DNA of 6,906 nt. Origin: a virus. Lineage: Duplodnaviria; Heunggongvirae; Uroviricota; Caudoviricetes. The position numbers were made by a program, and so were the translations under genes. Location: IMG/VR virus record IMGVR_UViG_648276671_000005; one strand, given 5' to 3'. The notes below the pieces were generated by a model that was given only the letters and a program-made list of their open reading frames with translations, was not told the DNA's origin and did no database searches. Positions 455 through 6,906 of the stretch are shown here, piece after piece; within the stretch, counting starts at the first letter, position 1; every line of letters starts with the position of its first letter.

Positions 455-998
455 TTACTTGTCTTTATCCGGCTGAAACTTATCAGGCACATTTCCGGTA
501 GTTTCCATCAGATAATCGGACAGCATTCGCGGGATGTTTTCATCAAGTTTTGTGCATGCGTTACAGGCTCTGACAACTTCTTTTTTCAGGCCATCCAGCA
601 TGACGGGGGTCATCTGTGGGAAGCTCCTTTGCATAGTAAGCGGGCAGGCTGTCCATGATTGATGAAATCTGACTCGCCAGTTTTGAAAGCGCGTACATGC
701 AAAACTCTGTATCAATCACGTCACCGCGATCGCGCTCGTTTTTAAGTTCCTGCGCCTCCGCCTGTGCTGTCAGTAATCTGATCCTGACTCGTAAGAGTTC
801 ATCATCATCAATCTCGCCTTTGTCGTTTGTAAGCTGGCTAATTGCATTGTTAACCCTATTGTCTATCACGCTGGCAACATCATAAAACGCCTCACGGCCT
901 TTACGTTCAATGGGAGTCACTCCCCACTTGTCGAATGCTGTAGCACTTACCCGGCAGCTTTGCGCCATGGTTTTTTTGTTCATCAGGTGCGATTTCAT
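455..998 (-). pseudogene. Lambda Nu1-like terminase small subunit (terS), interrupted by a +1 frameshift at a C5 run (G5 on plus strand, 605-609)
   Basis: ORF 561..1001 (N-terminal part) contains LTAQAEAQELKNERDRGDVIDTEFCMYALSKLASQISSIMDSLP, matching lambda Nu1 [45 protein letters not shown]. ORF 455..715 in the +1 frame contains MLDGLKKEVVRACNACTKLDENIPRMLSDYLMETTG, matching the Nu1 C-terminus FLKRDIIKAMNKAAALDELIPGLLSEYIEQSG. Removing one C from the run GACCCCCGTCATG joins them into an approximately 178-aa protein (Nu1 is 181 aa). Start taken at ATG 996-998 (MKSHLMNKK...); ATG at 983 is an alternative. Could be a real inactivation or a homopolymer sequencing error. Confidence 0.75.
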
Positions 999-1120
999 CA
1001 ATATCCCAACTTGGTCAAGGTTTCAGGTTGGTGTGTTGGTGTTATCTTTCCCTTTTTATTCATGGAGATAGAGCAAACAACAAAACCACCACCACCACCC
1101 TGAAAAAGCTCATAAATAGC

Positions 1121-1151
1121 GAAAAACCGCGAGGTCGCCGCCCCGTAACGG
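1121..1151. other. Lambda-type cos site (cosN core; 12-nt cohesive-end sequence GGGCGGCGACCT at 1132-1143 on the minus strand)
   Basis: Minus strand reads TTACGGGGCGGCGACCTCGCGGTTTTTCGCTATTTATGA, near-identical to the lambda cosN region GGGCGGCGACCTCGCGGGTTTTCGCTATTTATGAAAA as I recall it. It lies about 135 bp upstream of the Nu1-like gene, as in lambda where cosB separates cosN from Nu1. Confidence 0.75.
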
Positions 1152-1175
1152 GTCCATATGCCGGAAAGGACCCGT

Positions 1176-1198
1176 AAAAAAAGCCGGATTTCTCCGGC
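1176..1198 (-). terminator. Rho-independent terminator after the capsid operon
   Basis: Minus strand: GCCGGA-GAAA-TCCGGC followed by TTTTTTT (A7 at 1176-1182 on plus strand), starting 7 nt past the stop of the 137-aa gene. Confidence 0.7.
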
Positions 1199-3266: not shown

Positions 3267-3298
3267 AATCACAACTGGATGTTCATCCAGTTGTGATT
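3267..3298. promoter_or_regulatory. 32-bp perfect palindrome (15-bp arms, 2-bp centre): candidate operator or 5'-leader hairpin for the capsid operon
   Basis: AATCACAACTGGATG-TT-CATCCAGTTGTGATT; arms are exact reverse complements, checked base by base. Directly abuts and overlaps the putative -10 element and lies about 30-60 bp upstream of the first capsid-operon start codon. Confidence 0.6.
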
Positions 3299-3323
3299 AT
3301 AATCATGATTTCATTTTACGCAA
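3296..3323 (-). promoter_or_regulatory. Putative sigma70-type promoter for the capsid operon
   Basis: Minus strand: -35 TTGCGT (complement of 3318-3323), 16-nt spacer, -10 TATAAT (complement of 3296-3301); the palindrome begins at the -10 and covers the predicted start-site region. Sequence pattern only. Confidence 0.35.
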
Positions 3324-3408
3324 TAATATTGAGTTGTATTGCAAATTGTGAAATGATTTCCGGCAACAGTAGTCACCATACTGTTAGATAAAAGCCTCAT
3401 ATGCAAAA

Positions 3409-3445
3409 GCCCGATAAGACCCTCTGACCTTATCGGGCTTTTTTT
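3409..3445 (+). terminator. Rho-independent terminator oriented on the plus strand (possibly bidirectional)
   Basis: GCCCGATAAG-(10-nt loop)-CTTATCGGGC followed by TTTTTTT (3439-3445), preceded by AAAA. On the minus strand only TTTT follows the stem. Confidence 0.5.
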
Positions 3446-3452
3446 GGGGCAT

Positions 3453-3474
3453 AAAAAAGCCGGACTTCTCCGGC
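3453..3474 (-). terminator. Rho-independent terminator after the ssb operon
   Basis: Minus strand: GCCGGA-GAAG-TCCGGC followed by TTTTTT, 17 nt past the ssb stop. Nearly identical to the hairpin at 1176-1198 (one loop difference). Confidence 0.7.
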
Positions 3475-3490
3475 TTCTGTTACTCGTTGC

Positions 3491-3913
3491 TTAAAACGGT
3501 ATGTTATCCCCGTACGGATCATCGTTACCCGCCTGTTGTTTTGCCCTGTTCAGTGCGTCAGTAGCCTGCCCTTGCTGGCCTTTTTTGCCGCCCGGTCGCG
3601 CCGTTCTCGCACTGATTACGCTGTCTGCGATAACCTGCCAGCCCTGCCGCGTTTCGCCGTTCTGGCCTGTCCACTGGCTTACCTGCATGTTACCCGCCAC
3701 GCTCACCAGTTCGCCTTTGTGGTGTTTTGCCAGCGCATCGGCCTGTCTGCCAAACGCCAGGACGGATAACCACATCGTCGCCGTTCCGTCATCTGCCTGG
3801 CTGCACGGAAGGGGGACCGCCATACTAGCCATCGTCATTTGTGTACCCTTGCTGGTGGTCTTTAACTGCGGGTCAGCCACCAGCCGCCCGTAAGCCGCTA
3901 TCTGTGCTGTCAT
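3491..3913 (-). CDS. ssb: Single-stranded DNA-binding protein (SSB), 140 aa
   Basis: OB-fold region WLSVLAFGRQADALAKHHKGELVSVAGNMQVSQWTGQNGETRQGWQVIADSV resembles E. coli SSB [52 protein letters not shown]. Gly/Gln-rich linker and acidic C-terminal tail DDPYGDNIPF (compare SSB DFDDDIPF). Confidence 0.85.
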   Translation of the reverse strand: MTAQIAAYGRLVADPQLKTTSKGTQMTMASMAVPLPCSQADDGTATMWLSVLAFGRQADALAKHHKGELVSVAGNMQVSQWTGQNGETRQGWQVIADSVISARTARPGGKKGQQGQATDALNRAKQQAGNDDPYGDNIPF

Positions 3914-4155
3914 GCTGTCTGCTCTCCGGTTTTAACGTTGATGGTTGTCACCTGTTCCGCTTCGGCAATCTCCCGTTCTGTCAGCGTGGCAAAGTTTGCA
4001 GCTGCCGTTGTCATGAATGCGCTAATCAGTTCGGGATGTGCTTTCGCATATCCTTCCCCGGCGTTGCGGTCGATGATTTTTATCGACACTCTTAACCAGT
4101 GTTCCGTCAAATCAAGGGCGTGCGATTGTGATTTTTTTGTGTGCTTCGCTGTCAT
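3910..4155 (-). CDS. Hypothetical protein (81 aa), first gene of the ssb operon
   Basis: ORF-track ORF whose stop overlaps the ssb start as ATGA (3910-3913); sits directly downstream of the iteron/ori region. No family recognised. Confidence 0.55.
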   Translation of the reverse strand: MTAKHTKKSQSHALDLTEHWLRVSIKIIDRNAGEGYAKAHPELISAFMTTAAANFATLTEREIAEAEQVTTINVKTGEQTA

Positions 4156-4202
4156 AGGCTTTATCTCACAGCAGTAAATTAAAATTTTTGCGTTTTAACC
4201 CT

Positions 4203-4430
4203 TCACCTGTTCACCTTTTGATATTTTCCATTTAAATTCATACTGTTAAGTGGTGAACAGTTTCACAAAAACTATTCACCAACTGTTCACCACTGTTCAC
4301 CCTTGAAGCTCAATAAACAACCAAAAAGGTGAACAGTGAATAGTTTGGTGAACAGTTCATAAATAACTGTTCACCCTATAATATACTGATATAAAAGATA
4401 TTTATGACAGGGTGAACAGTGGTGAACAGT
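4203..4430. repeat. Iteron array, putative origin of replication (nine perfect 9-mers GGTGAACAG/CTGTTCACC in both orientations)
   Basis: Forward GGTGAACAG at 4252-4260, 4328-4336, 4347-4355, 4411-4419, 4421-4429; reverse CTGTTCACC at 4207-4215, 4283-4291, 4293-4301, 4367-4375; plus degenerate copies (4273-4280, 4336-4344). Flanked by an AT-rich stretch at about 4170-4250. Starts immediately after the replication-protein stop. The core TGTTCACC is, as I recall, the P4 ori/crr type I iteron bound by P4 alpha. Confidence 0.8.
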
Positions 4431-6562: not shown

Positions 6563-6906
6563 TTATCCCCGATTTGAATCAGTATTCGCTTTCTTTATGG
6601 CATTTAATGCATCTGTGGCATTTTCAATGGTGCACCGTAACGAAATATCAAAATGTCCAAGCATTGCCAGTAACAAACCGATATTACCCATATCAATGCG
6701 CATGGCCTTTTCGTCATAGTCCTCATTTTCTGACGCATGCCACATCAGGCTACCAATTGACGCAACGGCCATTGATATATTGTCAGTCGCCCCATCCGCA
6801 GCGGAATAAACCTTTTTAGCAATATCATGCTCACAGTTAAAATGCGGATTAATCAGGTACTGGTAATTTGACATATCAGGCAAGTGGCACACCCCCTGAC
6901 GAATAC
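6563..6906 (-). CDS. Hypothetical protein, probably 5'-partial (frame open to the window edge)
   Basis: ORF-track ORF 6563..6892 begins at a GTG; the same frame has no stop through 6906, so the true start may lie beyond the window or at the internal ATG 6872-6874. Unknown function. Confidence 0.4.
   Translation of the reverse strand, partial: IRQGVCHLPDMSNYQYLINPHFNCEHDIAKKVYSAADGATDNISMAVASIGSLMWHASENEDYDEKAMRIDMGNIGLLLAMLGHFDISLRCTIENATDALNAIKKANTDSNRG

Follow-up and report, generated by a model that had tools for sequence, protein, structure and literature searches.

The lambda Nu1-type small-terminase gene (terS) found in the window, that is, in the whole 6,906-nucleotide stretch of viral DNA analyzed here, is broken after codon 119 by one extra base at 642-645. 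The case is of a known kind, in which a widely annotated satellite gene has a private lesion or an error. Our preferred reading, to which we give a probability of about 0.5, is that the mutation is real, very recent and private, that it abolishes the function of the gene, and that the satellite is at the onset of decay. The features on which the argument turns are as follows.

455-998, minus strand: terS (lambda Nu1-type small terminase, PICI-type satellite); ancestral extent of 180 codons and a stop, plus one extra base
561-998, minus strand: written open reading frame (ORF); 145 aa in total, of which 119 are native and 26 out of frame (AYYAKELPTDDPRHAGWPEKRSCQSL), then a stop
455-640, minus strand: C-terminal codons now out of frame; 61 codons, residues 120-180 (LTMQRSFPQMTPVMLDGLKKEVV...DKDK), and a stop; match lambda Nu1 134-181
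642-645: private 1-nt insertion after codon 119; plus strand GCGGGCAGG, against GCGGG-AGG or GCGG-CAGG in relatives
605-609: G5 run (minus strand ACC CCC, Thr-Pro); wild type, with the same C5 in intact genes
1002-1098, minus strand: candidate satellite-specific cosB, between cosN and terS; no similarity to lambda cosB
1132-1143, minus strand: cosN cohesive-end sequence GGGCGGCGACCT, identical to lambda
1161-1178, minus strand: cosQ-like segment TTTACGGGTCCTTTCCGG, 18/18 identical to lambda

The gene, its satellite and the cos region

Two overlapping open frames lie on the minus strand of 455-1001, at 561-998/1001 and at 455-715. The first gives the written product, which ends at 561 and has 145 aa if the ATG at 998 is its start, or 146 aa if the TTG at 1001 is; the second carries the remainder of the Nu1-like protein. 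The written 146-aa ORF scores 56.8 bits against Pfam PF07471 (Phage_Nu1; cut-off 30), compared to 81 bits for an intact relative. Once repaired, the protein finds PHROG 57, the family of the terminase small subunit, across residues 1-173 (E value 6.7e-51), and is 36-37% identical to lambda Nu1 in an alignment of residues 6-166; its closest phage protein is N15 gp1 (47% identity by tblastn). A preliminary description had proposed a Nu1-type small-terminase gene broken by a single-base frameshift, and both points hold, the first from the Pfam, PHROG and lambda alignments and the second from the one +1 indel relative to intact relatives. It had further predicted that a one-base deletion would give a protein of about 178 aa; the full-length frame is indeed restored, but at a length of 180 aa. 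Close relatives of the terS segment are present in about 760 complete E. coli genomes, where they are annotated as a 543-nt 'terminase small subunit', and the family retrieved by protein search is predominantly 180 aa long, with large clusters of up to 659 contigs. In these relatives the three-part protein is encoded in a single frame, which in the window is interrupted. From this homology, the gene at 455-998 is identified as the Nu1-type small terminase of an enterobacterial PICI-type satellite.

The window also encodes a D5-type primase (D5_N, DUF5906, Pox_D5), an SSB, a lambda E-like capsid protein (Phage_cap_E) and a D-like decoration protein (HDPD). It ends before int and alpA, and an integrase and Phage_AlpA are found at the expected positions in a full-length relative (L005). 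One full-length copy, of about 11 kb, lies between phoQ and roxA. The full-length annotated relatives have no terL, portal, tail or lysis genes; after terS they have only a 93-94-aa ORF (PHROG 1561), followed by chromosomal genes, and no cognate large terminase. That no large-terminase gene follows terS is explained by the element being a satellite, which must borrow TerL. An int / AlpA / primase order, a capsid homologue together with terS and a size within 10-15 kb are the features of PICIs, and the same gene order has been described for Gram-negative PICIs of the TerS-encoding kind (PMC6092414, PMC10085698). As read from its gene content, then, the element is a Gram-negative PICI with a lambda-type cosQ/cosN, a cosB of its own and no large terminase; up to six copies of it occur per E. 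coli genome. The preliminary description had missed this placement of the gene in a phage satellite. We rejected a capsid-forming PICI, given that portal, protease, terL and connector genes are all missing. A tblastn search of 50,697 phage records for a helper with a matching TerS C-terminus gave no match of at least 60% identity, the best being N15 at 47%.

The closest described counterparts are the TerS-encoding PICIs (E. coli IHE3034 and 18098, Fillol-Salom 2018; de Sousa et al. 2023), which have the same int-alpA-pri-(ssb)-capsid-decoration-terS order, a size of about 11 kb and no tail or lysis genes (PMC6092414, PMC10085698); the 1-nt insertion is found only in the window's copy. Two TerS-encoding E. 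coli islands have been tested for transfer, and none was seen (PMC6092414). The concept is also that of the SaPI TerS, a satellite protein that gives packaging specificity using the TerL of the helper (PMC6739421), but SaPIs use pac (headful) packaging, an unrelated TerS family and Gram-positive hosts, whereas the element in the window is cos-type and its TerS belongs to the Nu1 family.

Several other features of the element were recorded. Between the decoration gene and cos, a 137-aa protein is encoded on the minus strand (1205-1618) that matches PHROG 1999 and has a weaker match to the head-maturation-protease family PHROG 53 (E 1.3e-8), confined to the 75 C-terminal positions of that family; this pattern is the one expected of a Nu3-like scaffold domain, and RefSeq names the protein 'hypothetical' or 'head-tail connector'. 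Two relatives (L001 and L002) have a different, 384-nt HTH gene in its place. PICI replication origins lie downstream of the primase gene, and because the two intergenic tandem arrays found at 4270-4301 (AACTGTTCACC x 3) and 4407-4430 (ACAGTGGTGA x 2.5) are located there, just downstream of the primase gene, they are probably iterons. At 156-211, a perfect hexanucleotide repeat, (GGTCAT) x 9.3, reads (ATG ACC)n on the minus strand, that is, (Met-Thr)n, at the start of the small conserved PHROG 1561 ORF, which is cut off by the left end of the window. The number of copies varies, being 3-6 in relatives, and adds in-frame start codons.

The terS gene lies directly downstream of cosQ-cosN-cosB. 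On the minus strand, the lambda cos junction can be aligned to 1099-1178, with few mismatches in the cosN region of about 45 bp; past the cohesive end, the next 30 bp or so are a near-match, and similarity to lambda is lost after about bp 45. Counted from the cohesive end, terS starts with its ATG at bp 146; lambda has the start codon farther away, at bp 191, and N15 (bp 89) and the rpp gene of PICI-C (bp 102) have it closer (PMC9026076). The position that corresponds to R3, at bp 48-65 from the cohesive end (PMC9026076), is covered by a tandem repeat, (ACC)5/(GGT)5 at 1085-1099, and the cosB candidate contains a 13-nt inverted repeat (1021-1033/1093-1105). We regard 1002-1098 as a candidate for the cosB function; the combination of a lambda-like cosQ/cosN with an unrelated cosB suggests helpers with a lambda-type TerL. 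Compared to lambda gpNu1 and N15 gp1, the repaired protein is homologous over nearly its whole length, and the gene has the same place just downstream of cosQ-cosN-cosB, with cosQ and cosN nearly identical to those of lambda; here, however, no large-terminase gene comes next, cosB is unrelated to lambda's, and the window's copy has its final 61 codons out of frame.

A private insertion: mutation or sequence error

In an alignment with three intact relatives, the only indel is at window 642-645, and pairwise blastn against five relatives gave the same site. The minus strand reads AGCCTGCCCGC in the window, and AGCCT-CCCGC or AGCCT-GCCGC in the relatives (plus-strand versions GCGGGAGG or GCGGCAGG), whose two alleles are synonymous codons, CTC and CTG, for Leu118. 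A 100-nt query centered on the site matched 652 complete E. coli genomes, none of which has the insertion; 29 records came closest, at 99.0% (99/100, one gap), and none was identical. Exact patterns with the inserted allele had no match in GTDB representatives, metagenomes or IMG/VR. With a control pattern that accepts either length, 34 contigs were recovered from the viral set and 21 from the metagenomes, and each of these 55 has the shorter form, that of the intact gene; the GTDB representatives gave no match even to this control, which makes that set uninformative for the insertion. A look-up of the exact 145-aa product returned no record. The interruption is private to the window sequence: it occurs in no other sequence, contrary to the scenario, considered in the preliminary description, of related elements uniformly carrying the same interrupted frame.

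Frameshifted or truncated terS singletons do appear in public data, as judged by the protein search, but they are rare, their positions differ, and none is the allele of the window. The rare broken versions are P0027, P0031, P0069, P0070, P0078, P0085-P0087, P0090 and P0096; one rare terS frameshift, on four contigs, is in the A6 run of GGCCTGAAAAAAGAAG.

Sequencing error, decay and a truncated TerS had all been named beforehand as explanations, and they proved to be the right set to consider. For a real mutation we counted the rare frameshift alleles at other positions of terS, as well as the situation in the closest good relative, E. coli 06-00048 (L008), which is 99.4% identical over 6.1 kb. 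There, terS is split by an IS21-family element (ISEc10; L008 3173-6061), an independent inactivation; since the terS of the nearest relative is split in this way, loss of terS is evidently tolerated. The window, moreover, has a private record of its own. Position 911 has a private non-synonymous substitution, Val30 to Ile in the N-terminal part (0 of 593 matching complete E. coli genomes), and up to six more private substitutions lie in 3290-4280; with private substitutions present, the private history of the lineage has been long enough for indels to arise as well.

A second private insertion, AG at 6883-6884 (GGCAAGTGGC against GGCA--TGGC in relatives), is found in none of 474 matching complete E. 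coli genomes, where the best identity is 98.1% (105/107). It turns the ATG start of a conserved 106-aa gene (PHROG 15327) into CACTTG and also shifts the last codons of an overlapping Icd-like gene. The count of two private indels against one to about seven private substitutions is compatible with both mutation and error.

Error is the main competitor. The extra base would then be a sequencing, consensus or assembly artefact, with terS intact (180 aa) and functional in the organism; we hold this to be a serious possibility, somewhat short of even odds. The insertion is a singleton, absent from the E. coli genomes and from the three public collections alike, and its product is recorded nowhere. 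With two private indels in the same 6.9 kb, sequence quality may be at issue. The coding DNA downstream of the shift, although out of frame, is unchanged, its 186 nt being identical to those of the intact AR_0077 gene, which fits an artefact and a very recent mutation equally. The inserted allele, TGCCCG, resembles a blend of the common alleles TCCCG and TGCCG, and such a blend could arise by consensus error over collapsed multi-copy elements. Error-prone assemblies of the element do exist, as in strain A33, where nearly every gene is flagged as frameshifted. Long homopolymers, on the other hand, are the usual place for indel errors, and neither private insertion is in one; apart from these two sites there are no indels relative to the closest good relative over 6.1 kb, and the private substitutions, untypical of errors, show real divergence.

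The A33 sequence deserves a separate mention: its 18.5-kb locus (L004) holds at least three copies of the island family, head to tail in one chromosome region. Compared to the window, most of its indels are deletions of one base.

The truncated product

The shift follows residue 119, which is equivalent to P133 of lambda. As judged from the alignment, the product keeps the DNA-binding region and most of the oligomerization region, the first two parts of the protein being whole or largely so, and the 61 C-terminal residues that are lost correspond to the TerL-binding part of lambda Nu1; the earlier view of a 145-aa product deprived of the C-terminal part that binds the large terminase in lambda is upheld. 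Lambda TerS binds TerL via its C-terminal part, and binds it poorly when the last 30 residues are missing (PMC9026076 section 1.2; PMC6739421). In the mechanism that we propose, the N-terminal part of the intact 180-aa protein would bind the cosB of the satellite and its C-terminal part would recruit the large terminase of the helper phage, which would cut the lambda-type cosN and package satellite DNA. With the extra base at 642-645, translation would yield 119 native and 26 junk residues and no TerL-binding part. The written product should not recruit TerL, and loss of function is the expected outcome.

Within terS (window 455-610, alignment columns 400-573), a mosaic structure was also observed: the Nissle-type allele is near-identical to that of the window up to about codon 130 and then strongly divergent over the C-terminal part. 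This suggests that C-terminal (TerL-binding) modules are exchanged, and these are perhaps matched to different helpers.

The 145-aa product could instead be functional, as an Rpp-like decoy that would still bind DNA and oligomerize but, having no TerL-binding end, would pair with the TerS of a helper or a co-resident element and redirect or block packaging. Rpps are proteins of 135-154 aa that have a winged-HTH and a dimerization domain and are devoid of the TerL-binding end (PMC6739421, PMC9026076), and the truncated product resembles them in its length and presumed domain content; the cos site next to it is intact. The parallel with RppA/B/C of EcCICFT073-type PICIs extends to the setting, a satellite protein beside a lambda-type cosQ/cosN with a satellite-specific cosB, and to the missing TerL-binding end of the product (PMC6739421, PMC9026076). 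The ancestral protein differs, however, in being a 180-aa Nu1 homologue, expected to recruit TerL directly rather than via a phage TerS, and the short form is a private frameshift, not a conserved design. A decoy is hard to reconcile with a singleton allele whose 26-residue junk tail is conserved nowhere, and the truncated forms known from public sequences are individually rare, with breaks at different positions.

Sequence similarity to the solved Rpp structures is likewise missing. A phmmer search with the intact 180-aa protein against all PDB chains, a set that presumably includes the deposited RppC structures, gave no match at E <= 0.01 and unrelated chance matches at E <= 10. We rejected an identity with Rpp on this absence of a PDB sequence match and on the ancestral protein being a full-length Nu1 homologue, Rpps being 135-154 aa long. 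All told, a functional decoy is very unlikely. The fuller version, in which the 145-aa product is expressed as an Rpp-type decoy or dominant-negative protein and gives a snapshot of how Rpp-like proteins originate from small terminases by C-terminal loss, is most improbable.

Placement of the shift and its meaning

ORF logic alone is unable to place the shift, because both frames are open across 561-715; the 180-aa frame is regained whichever single base is deleted from the true lesion down to the premature stop (561-563), and it is homology that places the shift. The preliminary description had put it in the G5/C5 homopolymer at 605-609, as a slip from G4 to G5. Homopolymers are common indel sites, and deleting one G there does reopen a 180-codon frame (with ...SLPAYYAKELPTDDPVMLDGL...), just as deleting the base at 644 or 645 gives a 180-aa protein (with ...SLPLTMQRSFPQMTPVMLDGL...). 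The two repairs differ in the 12 residues between the sites. Repair at 642-645 aligns LTMQRSFPQMTP with LSVQRRFPELEN of lambda Nu1 and scores 109 bits against that protein. The G5 repair replaces this Nu1-homologous segment with the spurious and unrelated AYYAKELPTDDP, has a single match to lambda among the 12 disputed residues, to which the whole difference in score is due, and falls to 96 bits; it would thus make 12 wrong residues.

The G5 run itself is wild type. Its motif, GACCCCCG, is the same in the window and in the two closest of the three intact genes, and Nissle has TACCCCCG; the C5 run is unchanged in all three, Nissle included, and the motif, ATG ACC CCC GTC, codes for Met-Thr-Pro-Val. 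Among 63 fetched loci, most intact 180-aa genes have the ACCCCCG run, so that comparing relatives for G4 or G5, as had been advised, would mislead. Found in intact, annotated 180-aa genes, and with the sole indel about 36 nt upstream on the gene strand, the homopolymer is scarcely credible as the origin of the split.

A programmed +1 ribosomal frameshift yielding both a short and a full-length TerS would take advantage of the two frames open across 561-715, but programmed sites are conserved, and none of the 652 E. coli genomes or the 55 other contigs has the interruption, every relative encodes the protein in one frame, and no known shifty motif is seen at 642-645; without conservation, we rejected this explanation, which is next to impossible.

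The case illustrates that the nearest homopolymer can be the wrong frameshift site when both frames are open over 150 nt. For annotation, the gene is a frameshifted PICI terS with its lesion at 642-645, and beyond correct annotation the finding matters little. If the lesion is real, as in the reading that we prefer, this copy of the island has probably lost its own packaging specificity. It would then be transferred only when an intact TerS of the same cosB specificity is supplied in trans, and its state would represent a normal step in the decay of a satellite.
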